Of a stretch of 64,000 bases of DNA, positions 47,107 to 62,117 are shown piece by piece. Position numbers and translations under genes: made by a program. This DNA is from Candidatus Bathyarchaeota archaeon B24 (GTDB lineage Archaea > Thermoproteota > CALKCG01 > B24). The stretch spans positions 2,485 to 66,484 of the forward strand of contig LUCB01000012.1 of assembly GCA_001593865.1 (NCBI GenBank), written 5' to 3'. The notes beneath the pieces were generated by a model, which was not told the origin of the DNA, did not search any database, and saw only the letters and a program-made list of their open reading frames with translations. The stretch's first letter is position 1. Each line of letters starts with the position of its first letter.

Positions 47107-48378
47107 TTACTTTTCCTTCAAAAGCTCTTCTAGTATCTCCTTAGCCCTATCTATCCTTATCTTACGTTCTTCCACCATTCTTCGAGCAACCTCATCTATC
47201 AATCGACCGGTCGCCCCCGCCATTATGGCTATGTTCCTAGCATGCAGCTTCATATGCCCCCTCTGAATACCTTCCGTGGCTAAAGCCCTTAAAGCCGCCA
47301 GGTTCTGGGCTAACCCGACCGAAGCCATAACCTCCGCGAGTTCGGAAGCGGTCTTAACGCCCAATATCTTAAGGCATACCCGTGCGAGCGGATTAGACCT
47401 AGTCGCGCCGCCTATGATCCCGACGGCCAAGGGTATTTCTATCGTGCCCACTAGGTCTCCGTCTTCGTTAACCTCCCAAGTGGTCAGAGGCTGATACTTC
47501 CCCGTCCTAGCGGCGTAGGCGTGGGCCCCAGACTCTAAAGCTCTCGTGTCGTTTCCGGTGGCTAGGGCGACGGCTATTATACCGTTCATAATCCCCTTGT
47601 TATGGGTCGCGCATCTGAAGGGGTCTGATTTCGCGAAGTTGTACGCGTAGATTATCCCCTCGACAGCCTCTTCCCCGCCTAGAGCCTCTTTATCGAATAC
47701 GGCCCTAGCCCTCGCAAGCCTATAGACGGCTAAGTTGGAAACTATACGGAGATACACCTTACCGCCCGTGAGCTTCTCGATCATAGGCGCCACGGCCTCG
47801 GCCATCGTGTTGACCGCATTAGCCCCCATAGCGTCTTTAACATCGACTAGGAGGTGGGTTATAACCATCGGCCCTACGTCCGTATCTATAACCCTGACCT
47901 CTAGGTCTTTGGCGCCTCCACCTAGTTTGACGAGTATCGGGTCTTGCTCGTTAGCCTTCTCGAGTATCTCGTCCTTATGAGCTAGTATAGTGTATCTCGC
48001 CCCGTAGGGGTCTGGAACCTTGACGAGCTGGATCTGCCCTATCATAATCGGCTTGGTCGTCGACGCCTGAAACCCTCCCTTAACCCTGGCTATCCTAGCC
48101 GCGTTACTCGCAGCCGCTACGACGCTCGGCTCCTCTATCGCCATAGGCACCATATAATCTCTACCGTTTATCAGGAAATTCACGGCTACCCCCAGCGGTA
48201 TATGCATAACCCCTATGACGTTCTCTATCATCCTATCCGCGAGGGTAAGCTCTAGGCTTCCTGTGTTCTTAAGAAGGGCGACCTCCTCATCGGTTAGACC
48301 CGCGAAATCGGCTACGATACGTAGCCTCTCCTCGGGGCTGAGCTTGTAGAAGCCAGGAATACGAGATGTCTTAGCCAA
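47107..48378 (-). CDS. hmgA: 3-hydroxy-3-methylglutaryl-CoA reductase (class I)
   Basis: Conserved [13 protein letters not shown] and [10 protein letters not shown]...GG motifs; 423 aa. Confidence 0.85.
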
Positions 48379-48429
48379 ACACTACACCTAGATCTTTAAT
48401 TACGCTGTATAGGGGGATAAGGCTTACTA

Positions 48430-48906
48430 ATGACCTATGCGGCGAGGGTAATTCTTAACTATAGTAAACGCTATGAGGGGATCCTGTCGAATCTATACGG
48501 AGAAACCTGGGTGGTGTGGTTGGCTAAGCTTAAGATGATACTGGTCTCCGGTAGGTCTCTCGGGCAGGGTCTGGGGAAAGAGGCTGGTAAGTTCTCAAGC
48601 CGCTACATGGACGCGACGGCTACGTGTCAGCTAGACCCAGAGGATATGGAGAAGCTCGGGGTCTCGGAAGGCGGAAGCGTTAAGATAACGTCGAAACACG
48701 GATGCATAGTGGTTAAAGCGTCCAAATCCAGATACGCTCCCCATAAAGGTGTAGTATTCATAGCCTACGGACCCTGGGTCAACGCCTTGACAAGCCCTGA
48801 AACCCATGGAACCGGTATGCCCGGCTTTAAGGGCTTAGAGGTTGAAGTTGAACCGGTCGAGGAGCCGGTCAAACCGGTGGATGGGCTTCTTAAGGAGGTG
48901 GTCTAG
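48430..48906 (+). CDS. fwdD: Formylmethanofuran dehydrogenase subunit D (molybdopterin-dinucleotide-binding domain protein)
   Basis: ILVSGRSLGQG...YMDATATCQLDPEDMEKLGVSEGGSVKITSKHGCIVVKA...YGPWVN matches the FwdD/MopB C-terminal beta-barrel family pattern. Confidence 0.7.
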   Translation: MTYAARVILNYSKRYEGILSNLYGETWVVWLAKLKMILVSGRSLGQGLGKEAGKFSSRYMDATATCQLDPEDMEKLGVSEGGSVKITSKHGCIVVKASKSRYAPHKGVVFIAYGPWVNALTSPETHGTGMPGFKGLEVEVEPVEEPVKPVDGLLKEVV

Positions 48907-48907
48907 C

Positions 48908-50191
48908 TTGACGGTTATCGAGAACGTTGTATGTCCGTTCTGTGGATGCTGCTGCGACGACTTGGAGGTCGAGGTCGATGCGAATAGGATAGTAAGCGTA
49001 AAGAACGCGTGTGCCTTAGGAAGGGGTAAGTTCCTGAGCATAAACGAGCATAGGTTGCTTAACCCCCTGGTCAAGATGGGTGATGGGCAAGTCGAAGTGG
49101 GCTTAGAAGATGCCGTCGGCAGGGTCGCCGATATGCTCGAGGAATCGGTTTATCCCGTCTTCTACGGGTTCGGCTGCGCGAGCTGCGAGGCTATAAAGCT
49201 ATGCTTAGAGATGGCCGACAGGCTCGGCGGGTTGATAGATAACATAGCCGTGGTATGCCACGGTCCTACGATACTCGGGCTTCAAGACATGGGTATGCCG
49301 TCTGCTACCCTAGGCCAGGTTAGACATAGGGCTGACCTCATAATCTACTGGGGCTGTAACCCGGCTGAGGCTCATCCAAGGCATATGATGCGTTACGGCC
49401 CGCTCTCCAAAGGCCGGTTCGTGCCTGATAGGCGGCATAGGAAGGTCGTGGTCGTCGATATCCGTAGGACTCCCACGGCTAGGGCCGCAGACCTGTTTCT
49501 GCAGGTTCAGCCTAACAGCGACTTCGAGGTTTTAACGGCTTTAAGAAGCCTAGTTAACGGCTTCGACTTGGAGGTCGACGAGGTAGGAGGTGTCCCCGTC
49601 GATATGCTTGAGAAGCTTGCCGATATGATGGTCGAGGCTAGGTTTGGAGCCCTGTTCTTCGGGCTGGGGCTGACTATGAGCTACGGTAGAGAGCGTAACA
49701 TCGAGGCAGCCGTAGCCTTGGTGAGGGACCTGAATAAGAAGACGAAGTTCGTCATGATACCTATGAGAGGGCATTTTAACGTCACAGGTGCCAACGAGGT
49801 TTTCACGTGGCAGACCGGATACCCGTTCTGCGTAGACTTCTCGATGGGTTATCCCAGGTATAATCCGGGTGAAACCTCCGCGGTGGACGTTATGGCTAGG
49901 GGGGAGTGCGACGTATTGTTCGTCGTAGGCGCCGACCCATACAGCCATCTACCCCGTAGCATACTCGAGAAGCTTAAGGATGTGAAAGTCATCGTCTTAG
50001 ACCCCCACATAACTCCCACGGTTAAGGCGGCTGACATAGCCATACCGGTGGCTCACGTAGGCGTCGAGGCGTCTGGAACCGTCTATAGGATGGACGGGGT
50101 CCCCTTGACGCTTAAAAAGGTTGTCGAGCCGCCACCCGGTATACCGTCAGATGTCGATGTTCTTAAGTCTATACTCAGGAGGTTGGTGTAG
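48908..50191 (+). CDS. fwdB: Formylmethanofuran dehydrogenase subunit B (Mo/W-bis-MGD subunit), probable TTG start immediately after the fwdD stop
   Basis: N-terminal VCPFCGCCCDD Cys cluster typical of FwdB, with a molybdopterin-oxidoreductase fold of about 430 aa. Confidence 0.8.
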   Translation: MTVIENVVCPFCGCCCDDLEVEVDANRIVSVKNACALGRGKFLSINEHRLLNPLVKMGDGQVEVGLEDAVGRVADMLEESVYPVFYGFGCASCEAIKLCLEMADRLGGLIDNIAVVCHGPTILGLQDMGMPSATLGQVRHRADLIIYWGCNPAEAHPRHMMRYGPLSKGRFVPDRRHRKVVVVDIRRTPTARAADLFLQVQPNSDFEVLTALRSLVNGFDLEVDEVGGVPVDMLEKLADMMVEARFGALFFGLGLTMSYGRERNIEAAVALVRDLNKKTKFVMIPMRGHFNVTGANEVFTWQTGYPFCVDFSMGYPRYNPGETSAVDVMARGECDVLFVVGADPYSHLPRSILEKLKDVKVIVLDPHITPTVKAADIAIPVAHVGVEASGTVYRMDGVPLTLKKVVEPPPGIPSDVDVLKSILRRLV

Positions 50192-51895
50192 ATGGTTGCT
50201 AAACTCCTTATAAAGAACGGTTTCGTCTACGACCCGTTGAACGGTGTAGACGGGGAGGTCATGGACATAGCTATAGAAAACGGGAAGATAGTGGAGGATG
50301 TCAGCGGAAGCGACGTCAAAGTCATAGACGCATCGGGTATGGTAGTTATGCCCGGAGGGGTCGATATACACAGCCACATAGCCGGCTCCAAGGTCAACTC
50401 AGGTAGAGCACTTAGGCCGGAGGATCATTATGGAGACTATGAGCCTCGTAGACCCGGCTTCAGGTCCGGTGTGGGGTACACCGTACCCTCGACCTTCACG
50501 ATAGGCTACCGATACGTCAAGATGGGCTATACGACCGTCTTCGAACCGGCTACCCCTATGCTCAAGCAGAAGCACACTATAGAGGAGTTGAACGACATAC
50601 CGATCCTAGATAAGGCCTCCTTCCCGCTTGTCGGGGACTGCTGGTTCGTCCTAGAGTACCTCGAAGAAGGTAAACTCAAGGAGTGTGCAGCGTATATAGC
50701 TTGGCTGCTTAAGGCGATCAAGGGATACGCCCTCAAGATAGTCAACCCTGGTGGGTTGGAGGCTTGGGGCTGGGGACGCAACGTGGAGGGGTTGGATGAC
50801 CAGATCCCAGGCTTCAGTCTAACCCCGAGGGAGCTTGTGAGGGGTCTATGTAGGGTCAATAAGATGCTTAATCTCCCCCATCCGATTCACGTCCACGCCA
50901 ATAGGCTGGGTAGGCCTGGCAACTATACGACTCTGATAGAGACTATGGACTGCGTCAGAGACCTCTACGAAGGAGATAAACCCGTCATATATCTGACTCA
51001 CTGTCAGTTCAACTCGTATACCGGTGAAAGCTGGATCGACCTAGGCTCAGGAGCGGCTGAAGTCGCGGACTACGTAAACAAGCATCCGCATGTACTCATC
51101 GACATAGGTCAAGTGATATTCTCGGAAGCCACGACCATGACGGCCGACGGCCCGTTCCAGTTCCAGCTTCACTTGCTGACGGATAACAAGTGGATCAACG
51201 CCGACGTAGAGGCGGAGTCTACGGCCGGTATAGTGCCGTTCAGGTTCAGGAGAAAGAACTACGTGCATGCAGTTCAGTGGATAACCGGTCTTGAACTCGC
51301 ATTGTCTATTAAAGACCCGTGGCGGATGTTTCTGACGACCGACCATCCTAACGCCGGGCCCTTCACCGAGTATCCGAGGGTTATCGCTTGGCTCATAAGC
51401 CGTAGAGCTAGGGAGGCTACGATCAAGCGGGTTAACGGTAGAGCGATCAGGAGGAGCATATTGGAGAGCCTAGACAGAGAATACAGCCTCTACGAGATAG
51501 CGGTAATCACCAGAGCTGGGACGGCTAAGGCGCTTGGGTTGGAGTCTAAGGGGCATCTAGGCGTAGGCGCCGACGCCGACGTAGCGGTCTACGATATAAA
51601 CCCGAGAGAGCTTGATATCTCCAGGGACTATAGACGGGTCAGAAGAGCCTTCAGAAGAGCCGCCTATACGATCAAGGCGGGTGAGATAGTGTGCGTAAAC
51701 GGCGAGCTGGTTAAAAACATGGAAGGTTCGATATACTGGGTTAAGCCAAGCATATCAAGCGACCTCGAGGAGTCTGTCGTCTCAGATATCCGCCGTAAGT
51801 TCAGAGAATATTACACGGTAGAGTTTGAGAACTACCTAGTAGGAGAGGAGTATCTACCCCGTTCAGTGGCCATAGAGGTTGAGGGAGGTGTGTAG
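50192..51895 (+). CDS. fwdA: Formylmethanofuran dehydrogenase subunit A (amidohydrolase superfamily)
   Basis: IKNGFVYDPLNGVDGEVMDIAIENGKIVEDV...VMPGGVDIHSHIAG matches the FwdA N-terminus; 567 aa. Confidence 0.85.
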   Translation: MVAKLLIKNGFVYDPLNGVDGEVMDIAIENGKIVEDVSGSDVKVIDASGMVVMPGGVDIHSHIAGSKVNSGRALRPEDHYGDYEPRRPGFRSGVGYTVPSTFTIGYRYVKMGYTTVFEPATPMLKQKHTIEELNDIPILDKASFPLVGDCWFVLEYLEEGKLKECAAYIAWLLKAIKGYALKIVNPGGLEAWGWGRNVEGLDDQIPGFSLTPRELVRGLCRVNKMLNLPHPIHVHANRLGRPGNYTTLIETMDCVRDLYEGDKPVIYLTHCQFNSYTGESWIDLGSGAAEVADYVNKHPHVLIDIGQVIFSEATTMTADGPFQFQLHLLTDNKWINADVEAESTAGIVPFRFRRKNYVHAVQWITGLELALSIKDPWRMFLTTDHPNAGPFTEYPRVIAWLISRRAREATIKRVNGRAIRRSILESLDREYSLYEIAVITRAGTAKALGLESKGHLGVGADADVAVYDINPRELDISRDYRRVRRAFRRAAYTIKAGEIVCVNGELVKNMEGSIYWVKPSISSDLEESVVSDIRRKFREYYTVEFENYLVGEEYLPRSVAIEVEGGV

Positions 51896-52736
51896 GTTGA
51901 AGGTTTACAGGATAACCCCTGCTTACGAGTTCAAATATCCCGTTCAAGCCGATGTATTGAAGCCTGAGCTGTTCGAGGAAAAGCCTCTCGAAGAAATCCT
52001 CAGCATAGAGGTATACGAGGGTAGGAGAAAACGTCTCCTAGGCGAGCTGTTCAAGGTCGAAGAGACCGGAGAGTCCGAGGAGACGACCTTGGAACTCATC
52101 GGTGACTTTTCCAAGGTTCGTAGAGTGGGTAAGGGGATGACTAAGGGAGTCGTCAAGGTTAAAGGCGTGGCCGGTATAGGCTTTGGAGAGGGTATGCGTG
52201 GCGGTAAGCTCGTGGTCGAAGGCTCCGCTGGTCCATGGTTAGGGGCTAAAATGCGCGGTGGCCTCATAGAGGCTCATGGGAACGTCGGGGACTTCCTAGG
52301 AGGCGCCTATAGGGGTGAAACCGTCGGCATGCGTGGTGGCGCTATAATAGTCCACGGAGACGCTGGGTGGAGCGTAGGGTACAAGATGCGGGACGGGCTG
52401 ATAATAGTCGAAGGAAACGCCGGGGGTTTTCTAGGGACCCACATGACCGGTGGGACGATAGGGGTTAAGGGAGAATGCGGCAGAGGGGTCGGGGCTTTCA
52501 TGAAAGCCGGTAAGATAGTCGTGGTCGGCTATATCCCATCGATCCTGCCGAGCTTCAGCTTCGAAGAGACCCGGCCTAGGGTTAAGCTCGGAGCTGAAAG
52601 GGTTAAGGGTCCACTCTACCTCTTTATAGGAGACTTGAACGAAAAAGGCTCGGGGAGGCTCTTCGTCCACGCCGAAGCTAACAAACATCTATCGTCCTAC
52701 GAACGATTCATAGAGGAGTTCTCAGAAGAGCTTTAG
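51879..52736 (+). CDS. fwdC: Formylmethanofuran dehydrogenase subunit C (GXGXG-repeat beta-helix)
   Basis: Repeated G-x-G-x-RGG / G-N-A/V-G-D motifs (MRGGKLVVEGSAG, MRGGAIIVHGDAG, GLIIVEGNAGG) as in the FwdC/GltB C-terminal domain. Confidence 0.8.
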   Translation: MREVCRLKVYRITPAYEFKYPVQADVLKPELFEEKPLEEILSIEVYEGRRKRLLGELFKVEETGESEETTLELIGDFSKVRRVGKGMTKGVVKVKGVAGIGFGEGMRGGKLVVEGSAGPWLGAKMRGGLIEAHGNVGDFLGGAYRGETVGMRGGAIIVHGDAGWSVGYKMRDGLIIVEGNAGGFLGTHMTGGTIGVKGECGRGVGAFMKAGKIVVVGYIPSILPSFSFEETRPRVKLGAERVKGPLYLFIGDLNEKGSGRLFVHAEANKHLSSYERFIEEFSEEL

Positions 52737-52808: not shown

Positions 52809-53588
52809 CTACAGTTGCTCCATGATTTTCTTAAGGTTCTCTAGGCATCTTCTCACACATTCGAGCGGTGGATATGCATAGCTTTCCTGCTCTATGATGT
52901 ACCACTCCGTGCCTCCGACGGTTTCACATAGCTTGAGAAACTCCCTCCACTTCATCTCCCCCTCACCTATCAGAGCCTTGGGGTTTGTAGACGAGTACTC
53001 CTTGAGATGGACGGTCATAGCTCTCCCAGGGTATCTCTTTATGATCTCGAGCACCCCGTCGCTGGTAACTCCTCCATACATCGCGTTACCCGTGTCAAGC
53101 TGCATGACGACCTCGGGAACTGTGGCTTTGAAGAATATATCCCATGGAGTCTCCCCGTTCATGGGTTTAAACTCTATATGGTGGTTATGATAGCCTACAT
53201 ACATTCCTTCAGGCTTTAGCTTCTCAGCGATCTCGTTGAACAATTTAGCCGTTTTAAGCCAGGCTTCTTTAGAGTTCCTCATGTTCTCCGGTAGCCAAGG
53301 CACTATGAGAAACTTGTTACCCAGAACGCGGTTGAACTCGATCGTCTTCTCCAACTCGTCTCCAAGTAAGGTGTCGATGGCTATGTGCGTCCCCGCGACC
53401 TTTAACCCCAGCTCGTCTAGTATTCTCCTAAGCTCCTCGGCGCTTCGCCCGTAGTAGCCTGCAAACTCCACTCCATCATAACCCATGTCTGCGACGGCTT
53501 TAAGGGTCTTCTCGAGGTCACGGGCGCAGTCTTCACGAACCGAGTAAAGCTGTAACGCTATAGGGATCTTACCCATACGACCACACAC
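52809..53588 (-). CDS. Sugar-phosphate isomerase/epimerase (xylose-isomerase-like TIM barrel)
   Basis: AP-endonuclease-2/xylose-isomerase-like TIM-barrel pattern (GYDGVEF...HLKEY...); 259 aa. Confidence 0.65.
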   Translation of the reverse strand: MCGRMGKIPIALQLYSVREDCARDLEKTLKAVADMGYDGVEFAGYYGRSAEELRRILDELGLKVAGTHIAIDTLLGDELEKTIEFNRVLGNKFLIVPWLPENMRNSKEAWLKTAKLFNEIAEKLKPEGMYVGYHNHHIEFKPMNGETPWDIFFKATVPEVVMQLDTGNAMYGGVTSDGVLEIIKRYPGRAMTVHLKEYSSTNPKALIGEGEMKWREFLKLCETVGGTEWYIIEQESYAYPPLECVRRCLENLKKIMEQL

Positions 53589-60465: not shown

Positions 60466-61236
60466 ATGATCGTGAACCTCATGGTTGTCGAACTACACAT
60501 ATACGGTTTGGAGGGAATCCCGGAGGTTAAGCCAGGAGACGATCTGGCGACTCTTATAATCGAAGCCGCCGACAGGGAAGGTATAGGTCTGATGGACGGC
60601 GACGTGGTCGTGGTTTCCCAGAAAGTCGTCTCCAAAGCCGAGGGTAGGGTCGTTCGTCTAGACACCGTTCAGCCGTCTAGGTTCGCCTTAAACCTCGCGG
60701 AGGCCGAGGGGAAAGACCCTAGACTTGTAGAGCTGATCCTCAGGGAGGCTAAACGCATAGTCAAAGCCAGGGATGGGCATATAATCACCGAGACCCTTCA
60801 CGGCTTCGTATGCGCAAACTCAGGCGTAGACCGGTCTAACATCCCAGGTGAGGACGTGGTCTCACTACTACCGGTAGACCCTGACGAGTCTGCAAGAAGG
60901 ATCCGAGACCGCATCAGAGAGATCAAAGGTGTAGATGTGGCGGTCGTGGTGACCGATACTTTCGGTAGAGCGTGGCGTGTCGGCCAGGTAAACTTCGCCA
61001 TAGGGGTGTCTGGGATGAAACCGTTGATAGACTACAGAGGTGTCCTCGACGCGTATGGCTACGTGCTTAAAGCCACTTCTATAGCGGTCGCAGACGAGGT
61101 CGCGGCGGCCGCCGAGCTCGTCATGGGTAAGGTCTCGAGGATACCGGTGGCCGTGGTGAGGGGTTTGAGGTTTATCCGAGGCGAAGGCTCGGCGAGAGAG
61201 CTTGTGAGACCGATAAAGAGAGACCTCTTCCGCTAG
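60466..61236 (+). CDS. cofE: Coenzyme F420-0:L-glutamate ligase (CofE family)
   Basis: VTDTFGRAWRVGQVNFAIGVSG and the overall CofE pattern; about 250 aa. Confidence 0.65.
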   Translation: MIVNLMVVELHIYGLEGIPEVKPGDDLATLIIEAADREGIGLMDGDVVVVSQKVVSKAEGRVVRLDTVQPSRFALNLAEAEGKDPRLVELILREAKRIVKARDGHIITETLHGFVCANSGVDRSNIPGEDVVSLLPVDPDESARRIRDRIREIKGVDVAVVVTDTFGRAWRVGQVNFAIGVSGMKPLIDYRGVLDAYGYVLKATSIAVADEVAAAAELVMGKVSRIPVAVVRGLRFIRGEGSARELVRPIKRDLFR

Positions 61237-62117
61237 CTTCTAACCCTCGAAGCCACGTAATCCACTATCTCCATGGCTATATCCACGTTTGTAACGGTCT
61301 GAAGCCCCCTCCAATCCGGCTGGCTGTTAACCTCGTTCACGTAGAAGCTTCCTTCGGGGTCGACGAGCATATCCACCCCCGCGACCTCGCATCCCAACAC
61401 CCTACAAGCCTTAACGGCCGTTTCCTCCATATCGCCCTGCAACCTACACGGCTCAGGTCTTCCCCCCTGAGCTATGTTCGTTCTCCAGGAGACCCCTACC
61501 CTACGCATAGACGCTATAACCCGGTCGCCGACGACGAAAGCCCGGATGTCTTCTCTGGCGTGGGGTATGTACTCCTGCATATAGACTACGCTATGGTGGT
61601 AGCTTAAGACCCTAGCGAGCCTATACAATATGTGGCGGCTTCTAACCCTCGTCATACCGGTCCCCCTCGAGCCGAATATCGGTTTAAGGACGACTCTCCC
61701 GTTTAACCGTTCGAAGGCTTCTACGCTGGCCCTAGGGTTTTCGCTGACGACCGTCTTAGGAACAGGTATACCCTCTCTTTCGAGTAGAAAGAGTGTCAGA
61801 TACTTGTCTACAGCCCTTTCTATTGCTTCAGCCCTATTAACGACGTAGACCCCGAGGCTCTCCATCGCTCTGAGCAGGTCTGTTCTGAAGATTATCTCCT
61901 CTAATGAGCCTCTGCTTATCGGTCTGACTATGACTGCGTCGAGGCTTTCCACAGGCTCCCCTCTGAAGCAGAGCTTGGGTTTAAACCCGACATAGGCGAC
62001 CAGGTCTCTAAAGCTGAAGCACGCGAACCTATAGCCCCTACGGTTGATCGCCTGCTTAAGCTTGAGGCTACACCAAGAATACTCGTTTCTAGTCAATATT
62101 CCTATTCTCAAATCCAC
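61233..62117 (-). CDS. RimK-family ATP-grasp ligase (CofF/MptN/LysX-type alpha-L-glutamate ligase)
   Basis: ATP-grasp fold with the RimK-like pattern (VVLKPIFGSRGTGM, EYIPHAREDIRAFVVGDRV); convergent with and adjacent to cofE. Confidence 0.65.
   Translation of the reverse strand: MDLRIGILTRNEYSWCSLKLKQAINRRGYRFACFSFRDLVAYVGFKPKLCFRGEPVESLDAVIVRPISRGSLEEIIFRTDLLRAMESLGVYVVNRAEAIERAVDKYLTLFLLEREGIPVPKTVVSENPRASVEAFERLNGRVVLKPIFGSRGTGMTRVRSRHILYRLARVLSYHHSVVYMQEYIPHAREDIRAFVVGDRVIASMRRVGVSWRTNIAQGGRPEPCRLQGDMEETAVKACRVLGCEVAGVDMLVDPEGSFYVNEVNSQPDWRGLQTVTNVDIAMEIVDYVASRVRS

Follow-up and report, generated by a model that had tools for sequence, protein, structure and literature searches.

The 64,000-nucleotide stretch of DNA analysed here (the window) carries a run of four genes, fwdDBAC, and the question it raises is what a formylmethanofuran dehydrogenase (Fwd) might do, and with which partners, in an archaeon that apparently does not make methane. 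The host genome is a 1.73 Mb MAG that is 90.2% complete and has no match to the mcrA model TIGR03256. Public records place it in the Bathyarchaeia, in keeping with the TACK-type host that the first-pass annotation had proposed. On the sequence comparisons described below, fwdDBAC very probably encodes the catalytic core of formylmethanofuran dehydrogenase in this hot-spring Bathyarchaeia archaeon, in whose genome no mcrA was found.

Table 1. Features of the fwdDBAC locus, in window coordinates
Feature	Product or role	Coordinates	Strand	Basis
fwdD	Predicted small molybdopterin-dinucleotide-binding (beta-barrel) subunit, 123 aa	48535..48906	+	PF01568, NCBIfam FwdD
fwdB	Predicted Mo/W-bis-pterin catalytic subunit, Cys-type, 427 aa	48908..50191	+	TIGR03129, 5T5I_B
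fwdA	Amidohydrolase subunit predicted to condense formate and methanofuran, 567 aa	50192..51895	+	TIGR03121, 5T5I_A
fwdC	Predicted GXGXG beta-helix scaffold subunit, about 279 aa	51897..52736	+	TIGR03122, Pfam GXGXG
hmgA/fwdD intergenic region	Divergent region, presumed promoter(s), inferred only	48379..48534	.	AT-rich CTTTAATTA at about 48392
hmgA	HMG-CoA reductase, NAD-type/class II family; outside the enzyme	47107..48378	-	TIGR00532, PF00368

There are four co-directional ORFs in the cluster (Table 1), and with revised starts they are separated by gaps of 1, 0 and 1 nucleotides, so that the tight packing first described for them is upheld. A tblastn search finds one copy of the cluster in the genome. 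The fwdD gene had been opened at position 48430, but its start most likely lies 105 nucleotides further in, at the ATG at 48535, because in five close relatives (L018-L022) stop codons close the frame just 5' of a conserved M-[IV]-L-[IV]-S-G-R-S-L start. These upstream stops rule out the longer ORF. Translation of fwdB starts at a TTG codon preceded by GGAGGTG, and a TTG codon is also the most likely start of fwdC, 1 nucleotide past the fwdA stop and preceded by GAGGGAGGTG. The Shine-Dalgarno-like GGAGGTG thus lies ahead of both genes. The neighbouring gene is hmgA, as had been annotated, with 539 bits against the TIGR00532 cut-off of 260 and a further match to Pfam PF00368. Its divergent arrangement with fwdD is kept in the same five relatives, which are the closest ones, and among the archaeal clusters compared fwd lies beside hmgA only there.

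All four subunit assignments hold against family profiles and structural alignments. FwdB, FwdA and FwdC exceed the cut-offs of their NCBIfam equivalog models with 554.7 bits (cut-off 327.8), 798 bits (392.75) and 247 bits (130.65), respectively, and FwdC is also matched by Pfam GXGXG. FwdD matches Pfam PF01568 (Molydop_binding) with 55 bits (7e-15) and the NCBIfam FwdD model with 116.7 bits (7e-34; residues 35-156 of the long ORF), which is under that model's 175-bit 'exception' cut-off. The GXGXG beta-helix of FwdC and the pterin-dinucleotide-binding barrel of FwdD are therefore encoded together with the A and B subunits.

The closest structural reference is the tungsten enzyme FwdABCDFG of Methanothermobacter wolfeii (PDB 5T5I/5T5M/5T61), with which the window shares the A, B, C and D subunits. 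FwdB aligns with 5T5I_B over residues 2-425 (E 6e-137), and both C-x2-C-x3-C and V-C-H-G-P are conserved. It contains VCPFCGCCCDD, and its [4Fe-4S] motif C-P-F-C-G-x-x-C aligns with that of the structure, as does V-C-H-G-P, in which the Cys-His pair corresponds to Cys118-His119. The Fe-S and Cys-His motifs occur in all Bathyarchaeia homologues compared. FwdA aligns with 5T5I_A over nearly its full length (E 7e-201), and five stretches are identical or conservatively replaced, namely H-x-H (H-S-H), the K in K-I-V-N-P, a second H-x-H (H-V-H), T-H and T-T-D. These stretches are reported in the 2016 structure paper to hold the ligands of the two-metal centre.

Homology of the A, B and C subunits extends to the Fhc complex of methylotrophic bacteria, a formyltransferase/hydrolase that frees formate from formyl-methanofuran with no redox step, and the locus might be read as encoding such a complex. 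The marks of an Fhc complex are a FhcB devoid of Fe-S and catalytic cysteines, the lack of FwdD and an fhcD gene within the cluster. The matches to Fhc of Methylorubrum extorquens (PDB 6S6Y) are, however, weaker, at 2e-85 for FwdA and at 1e-8 for FwdB, where only residues 262-394 align. In addition, FwdB resembles the Fwd subunit far better than it does FhcB, and its redox hardware, made up of the Fe-S cysteines and the Cys-His pair, is retained. The cluster also encodes a FwdD subunit but not ftr/fhcD, the ftr gene being located on another contig (C6). An Fhc-type function is thus extremely improbable. Retention of the N-terminal [4Fe-4S] motif and the Cys-His pair instead indicates that FwdB, of the MopB superfamily, is a predicted Cys-type redox enzyme rather than one of the pterin-less Fhc type, as the first-pass annotation had suggested from the cysteine cluster.

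By homology to the M. wolfeii enzyme, FwdB and FwdD would hold a W- or Mo-bis-pterin site with Cys as a metal ligand, along with one [4Fe-4S] cluster. The two metals are not separable by sequence. A tungsten-type AOR is encoded in the genome, and there is no match in it to the tungstate-binding protein WtpA. At the FwdB/FwdD site, CO2 would be reduced to formate with low-potential electrons. The formate would then travel along an internal tunnel that the FwdC beta-helix braces to the two-metal centre of FwdA, where it would be condensed with methanofuran to yield formyl-methanofuran. This product would be handed to Ftr, Mch, Mtd, Mer and CODH/ACS, and the H4MPT Wood-Ljungdahl pathway could run toward acetyl-CoA or acetate, or in reverse.

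The enzymes for these later steps are all encoded elsewhere in the genome. Matches to ftr (387 bits), mch (429), mtd (421), mer (466) and cdhC (692) exceed curated cut-offs, as does a match to mfnB, while cdhD/E are present and adjoin the AOR gene. The window itself includes cofE and an MptN-like ligase. The genome-wide search for pathway genes that had been proposed as a check thus returns most of the pathway. The identity of the genes is established, as are their intact catalytic motifs, their operon-like spacing and the co-occurrence of the remaining pathway genes. Fwd had been presented as characteristic of methanogens, ANME, Archaeoglobus and H4MPT-dependent methylotrophs, but it is already well known from Bathyarchaeia that are not methanogens. 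Published work reports the archaeal Wood-Ljungdahl pathway as complete in seven of nine hot-spring Bathyarchaeia families (PMC8407382) and in nearly every Bathyarchaeia order (PMC10321748). The fwdDBAC cluster is an ordinary feature of the Bathyarchaeia, and its annotation is of a known and already published kind.

One possibility is that the intact operon works mainly in the oxidative direction, converting formyl-methanofuran to CO2 and so disposing of C1 units or of methyl groups derived from acetyl-CoA, rather than fixing CO2. The enzyme is reversible, and alkane oxidisers are known to run it oxidatively (PMC11656701). Moreover, PFOR and AOR are encoded in the genome, and no linkage of hydrogenase, Hdr and Fwd was found there. 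However, direction is not readable from sequence, CODH/ACS is equally reversible, and published interpretations of related MAGs lean towards CO2 fixation or acetogenesis (PMC8407382). Mainly oxidative use is therefore a genuine possibility, though not one that we would call probable.

In methanogens the operon has the order fwdHFGDACB. The D-B-A-C order of the window does differ from this, as had been remarked, but it is not unusual, since it is found in nearly all of the loci compared from Bathyarchaeia, Archaeoglobales, Brockarchaeota and Heimdallarchaeota MAGs. These clusters have the same genes and usually no adjacent ferredoxin gene. Bacterial redox-type clusters (Gammaproteobacteria, Gemmatimonadales) likewise encode FwdD and a FwdB with the Cys-His pair, and they keep the same relative order (fwdDBA-x-C), but in them one further gene, missing from the window, separates fwdA and fwdC. 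Their FwdB proteins are 42-46% identical to that of the window, compared with 77-79% for the orthologues in the five nearest relatives. In a quick FwdB tree, the window sequence falls in a clade with five hot-spring Bathyarchaeia MAGs (100% SH-aLRT). This tree holds nearer relatives and no methanogen sequences, because the pattern-based contig scan that supplied it caught only the former. The cluster has been inherited within the Bathyarchaeia.

Unlike the M. wolfeii enzyme, the cluster includes neither the FwdF polyferredoxin nor FwdG. This absence of FwdF/G/H genes had been noticed from the window, and it extends further, as profile and motif searches recognise no FwdF/FwdG-type subunit elsewhere in the 90%-complete genome. 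The best match to the FwdF model reaches 51 bits against a cut-off of 375, with generic ferredoxins only, and a motif scan of all ORFs reveals no eight-cluster polyferredoxin. No ferredoxin-type ORF lies in the 46-56 kb region of the window, and the cluster includes no Fe-S ORF. In gammaproteobacterial/Thiothrix loci and one Rhodospirillaceae locus, a 101-aa two-cluster ferredoxin is encoded directly 3' of fwdC, and the window has no counterpart. A dedicated electron-transfer module (FwdF/FwdG, FmdF or F420 reductase) is an accessory rather than a catalytic feature of the enzyme. The characterised enzymes in a 2024 review all bear such a module (PMC11656701).

Several ferredoxins were considered as Fwd subunits and rejected. 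A 137-aa four-cluster ferredoxin is encoded 3 kb upstream of fwd in four related loci (L023/26/27/28), but its orthologue in the host genome is co-transcribed with aldehyde:ferredoxin oxidoreductase, which argues against such a role. Two small two-cluster proteins matched FwdF through repeated generic ferredoxin domains only; the first is NuoI-like, and the second sits after a methanogenesis-marker-16-like/CBS protein. An 88-aa candidate is PorD. The multi-cluster ferredoxins of the genome belong to AOR, PFOR or Nuo-like contexts or are generic.

Possible ferredoxin or F420 partners are encoded in the genome, including PorCDAB, a ferredoxin-AOR, an Fpo/Nuo-like complex and an FrhB-like protein. 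Like the metal and the direction of flux, the electron carrier is something that we infer. Because no FwdF/G module is encoded, the likeliest carrier is a free ferredoxin, either one that PFOR, AOR or CODH reduces or one coupled to the Fpo/Nuo-like complex.

The supply of cofactors is less easily accounted for. No cofG, cofH, cofD, RFAP synthase or MptA was found in the 90%-complete host genome, where a weak RFAP synthase match (C6:94462-94917) proved to be homoserine kinase. Among 17 genomes of the host's GTDB class, FO synthase (cofG/cofH) is recognisable in none, and RFAP synthase and MptA are each found in two. The literature searched yielded nothing relevant on cofH or methanopterin biosynthesis in Bathyarchaeia. 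Perhaps, then, the host is unable to make H4MPT and F420, and its fwd genes survive as an idle or decaying relic. Yet all four reading frames are open and none of the catalytic motifs is damaged, and FwdB is closely matched in the nearest relatives. Furthermore, FwdB is retained in 14 of the 17 class genomes (over the cut-off), Mer and MfnB in 15 each and CofE in 16, although a same-genus genome (95% complete) has no match to FwdB or MfnB. This class-wide retention argues that the genes are in use, with cofactors that are salvaged or made by unrecognised enzymes, and makes a relic very unlikely.

A speculative proposal, which we consider rather unlikely, is that in this hot-spring lineage a bare FwdABCD core, operating without a dedicated polyferredoxin subunit, might be fed directly by free ferredoxin at the FwdB cluster. 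The C1 pathway that it heads might depend on cofactors that are salvaged or made in unconventional ways, a suggestion prompted by the pairing of absent FO synthase and near-absent RFAP synthase and MptA with widely kept FwdB, Mer, CofE and MfnB.

With this enzyme core, the host could reduce CO2 to a bound formyl group, or carry out the reverse, and so open an acetyl-CoA pathway that apparently does not lead to methane. Such a pathway agrees with how carbon metabolism in the abundant, uncultured Bathyarchaeia is generally understood, and for this reason the finding adds little on its own. Of more use are two side questions, namely which protein donates electrons to an enzyme that lacks a FwdF/G module, and where F420 and H4MPT come from when genes for their committed steps are not recognisable. 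Both bear on the soundness of genome-based claims of autotrophy in Bathyarchaeia.

The fwd genes are four co-directional plus-strand ORFs, flanked by minus-strand genes that end at 48378 and start at 53588 (ORF listing, 46-56 kb), and Pfam matches along them run in the order Molydop_binding, Molybdopterin, Amidohydro_3 and GXGXG. Together with the NCBIfam scans of the four products and their divergent neighbour, this listing bears out the first-pass annotation, which had described a fwdDBAC operon beside hmgA. The fwdD start given there, 48430, is that of the longest ORF. It is replaced here by a more likely start, an ATG at 48535, because the conserved start M-[IV]-L-[IV]-S-G-R-S-L of the five closest relatives falls at this ATG, stop codons close their frames a few residues upstream, and the FwdD profile match within the long ORF does not begin until residue 35. 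The TTG start of fwdB lies 8 nt past the sequence GGAGGTG and 1 nt past the fwdD stop, and fwdA starts immediately past the fwdB stop. The start of fwdC is most likely a TTG preceded by GAGGGAGGTG, 1 nt past the fwdA stop, and a T-rich stretch is located 3' of the fwdC stop. This tight packing suggests that the four genes form one operon with translational coupling.

Features of the fwd region and of related loci (window positions unless marked; C5 is a contig of the B24 genome, and L014 and L097 are loci fetched from it)
Feature	Position	Strand	Model	Score (bits)	Cut-off (bits)
hmgA (HMG-CoA reductase, NAD-type family)	47107-48378	-	TIGR00532	539	
fwdD	start 48535; operon 48535-52736	+	NCBIfam FwdD	116.7	175 (strict; score below)
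fwdB	start 48908	+	TIGR03129	554.7	327.8
fwdA	start 50192	+	TIGR03121	798.1	392.75
fwdC	start most likely 51897	+	TIGR03122	247	130.65
cofE (F420-0:glutamate ligase)	60466-61236			296	score above
MptN-like RimK-family glutamate ligase, convergent with cofE	61233-62117		MptN	257	350 (score below)
Marker-16-like gene and 131-aa ferredoxin	C5:4392-6085 (L097:1495-3188)	-			
Ferredoxin-AOR pair	C5:117899-120055 (L014:4252-6408)	-			

Residues 2-425 of FwdB match chain B of the tungsten Fwd structure from Methanothermobacter wolfeii (5T5I; E 6e-137). An N-terminal C-P-F-C-G-x-x-C-D-D motif is kept, as is V-C-H-G-P, which by position holds the metal-ligand pair Cys118-His119 of that chain. Judged by this conserved Fe-S cysteine motif and Cys-His pair, FwdB is a Cys-type protein, neither Sec-type nor of the cysteine-less FhcB type. 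The cysteine-type assignment proposed earlier thus stands, and the check for Sec/Cys variants returns cysteine at the metal-ligand position. In contrast, the Fhc structure of Methylorubrum extorquens (6S6Y) is matched only in part (1e-8). FwdA aligns with 5T5I chain A (E 7e-201) and retains H-x-H, lysine, H-x-H, T-H and T-T-D stretches, which we take to be the ligands of the two-metal centre.

In an alignment of 79 FwdB homologues, the Fe-S motif and the Cys-His pair are kept in every Bathyarchaeia protein, and the pair is lost in distant Planctomycetota and Asgard homologues. FwdB-like proteins of Asgard and unclassified archaeal MAGs (L084, L088, L089, L091, L092, L095 and L096) have E-Y in place of Cys-His and keep the Fe-S motif, and no fwdA, fwdC or fwdD was detected near their genes. 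An 816-aa four-cluster Fe-S protein precedes the E-Y gene in L084, L088, L092, L095 and L096, and a 480-486-aa six-cluster Fe-S protein is additionally present in L084, L088 and L096.

The D-B-A-C order had been singled out as a departure from the canonical methanogen arrangement. It does differ from the textbook operon, but it is not unusual. Among 79 related loci it is the usual arrangement in Bathyarchaeia, Brockarchaeota, Geothermarchaeales, Archaeoglobales and one Heimdallarchaeota MAG, and by this prevalence it is ordinary outside the textbook methanogen operon. Gammaproteobacteria and Gemmatimonadales likewise share the order, but with an extra gene inserted before fwdC. Bacterial fwdDBA-x-C clusters that keep Cys-His (L064, L066, L071, L073-L075, L077, L093 and L094) differ in carrying a 101-aa two-cluster ferredoxin gene directly 3'. 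In a second Bathyarchaeia cluster type (L030, L034, L035, L037, L041-L043, L046, L047 and L085), fwdD precedes a longer fwdB of about 1413 nt that retains Cys-His, neither fwdA nor fwdC comes after it, and the FwdB proteins form a separate, well-supported clade in the FwdB tree.

The B24 genome assembly has 37 contigs and totals 1.73 Mb (90.2% complete, 2.1% contamination). In a species-level genome collection, its closest FwdB relatives come from hot-spring MAGs filed as Candidatus Bathyarchaeia or Bathyarchaeota (77-79% identity), followed by other Bathyarchaeia (51-65%). A quick maximum-likelihood tree groups the protein with the five 77-79% MAGs (SH-aLRT 100), with a second hot-spring Bathyarchaeia clade as sister (99), and this tree fits vertical inheritance of fwd. 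The divergent hmgA-fwdD arrangement is common to only these same five relatives, and this agreement with the FwdB clade speaks against mis-binning of the contig. The hmgA product is an HMG-CoA reductase of the NAD-type ('degradative', class II) family rather than of the usual archaeal NADPH class. A 95% complete genome of the same genus (G001) has Mer and CofE and no FwdB or MfnB match; either its assembly has a gap or the first step was recently lost in this genus.

The first-pass annotation was also correct that a ferredoxin-type subunit is missing from the cluster, and this holds for Bathyarchaeia more widely, where few loci have a multi-cluster Fe-S ORF within 7 kb of fwd. The B24 genome has no eight-cluster polyferredoxin, and no FwdF match in it exceeds 51 bits (cut-off 375). 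It encodes five or six four-cluster ferredoxins of a generic DmsB/HybA-like kind. The one with orthologues near fwd in four relatives proved to head a ferredoxin-AOR operon next to cdhD/E. This 135-aa protein is predicted to be co-transcribed with an aldehyde:ferredoxin oxidoreductase, the pair also adjoins a radical SAM gene, and in L023, L026, L027 and L028 its equivalent is located 3 kb 5' of fwd. Of the small two-cluster proteins, one is PorD, another a NuoI-like subunit, and a third, of 131 aa, is encoded behind the gene for a methanogenesis-marker-16-like protein (433 aa, CBS domains), in a genome where mcrA was not found. Also encoded are PorCDAB, AOR, CODH/ACS, an Fpo/Nuo-like complex and an FrhB/FpoF-like protein that carries a ferredoxin domain. 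An unrecognised electron-transfer subunit is possible, since the characterised enzymes described in a 2024 review (PMC11656701) carry a dedicated electron-transfer module. Our best inference is that free ferredoxin from the PorCDAB/AOR/CODH/Fpo-type pool serves FwdB directly.

The genome-wide check for pathway genes is positive. The genes ftr, mtd, mch, mer, cdhC and mfnB score above curated cut-offs, so methanofuran and H4MPT genes are present, contrary to the genome-wide absence that the first pass had named as refuting its reading, and cdhD/E are also encoded. A genome-wide search of this 90.2% complete genome did not find mcrA. The fwd genes are followed, some 8 kb downstream, by the cofE and MptN-like genes, and cofE is 7-15 kb from fwdB in four family members (G002-G005).

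Across the 17 species genomes of the GTDB class, which are MAGs in which absence means not found, CofE (16), Mer (15), MfnB (15), FwdB (14) and CofD (10) score above cut-off. The FO synthase components CofG and CofH were found in none of the 17, and CofH is present in two outgroups of the same phylum. CofD was not found in the B24 genome or its congener. RFAP synthase and an MptA-type cyclohydrolase are confined to the same two genomes (G011 and G014), and the sole weak RFAP synthase match in B24 is a homoserine kinase. The pattern is consistent across the genomes. Enzymes that depend on F420 and H4MPT are retained, while FO synthase, RFAP synthase and the MptA-type cyclohydrolase were found in few genomes or none, which suggests that F420/FO and H4MPT are salvaged or made by unrecognised enzymes. 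We found no paper on these missing genes in Bathyarchaeia in the literature searched.

The first-pass observation is confirmed and its interpretation supported, with small corrections, and fwdDBAC here is a correct annotation of a trait already known from published work. The complete archaeal H4MPT Wood-Ljungdahl pathway was reported in 7 of 9 hot-spring Bathyarchaeia families by Qi et al. 2021 (PMC8407382), whose study covered the QZM and JZ hot-spring MAG series; judged by isolate name, some of the relatives come from these series. It was found in almost all Bathyarchaeia orders and inferred for their ancestors by Hou et al. 2023 (PMC10321748), and its ferredoxin supply in termite-gut members was discussed by Loh et al. 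2021 (PMC7886697). Going by the homologous solved enzyme and the 2024 review (PMC11656701), CO2 would be reduced to formate at the pterin site of FwdBD with low-potential electrons, and formate would pass through an internal cavity stabilised by FwdC to be condensed with methanofuran by FwdA. The sequence is compatible with either direction of flux: the C1 unit would be carried to acetyl-CoA via Ftr, Mch, Mtd, Mer and CODH/ACS, or the entire route would be reversed.
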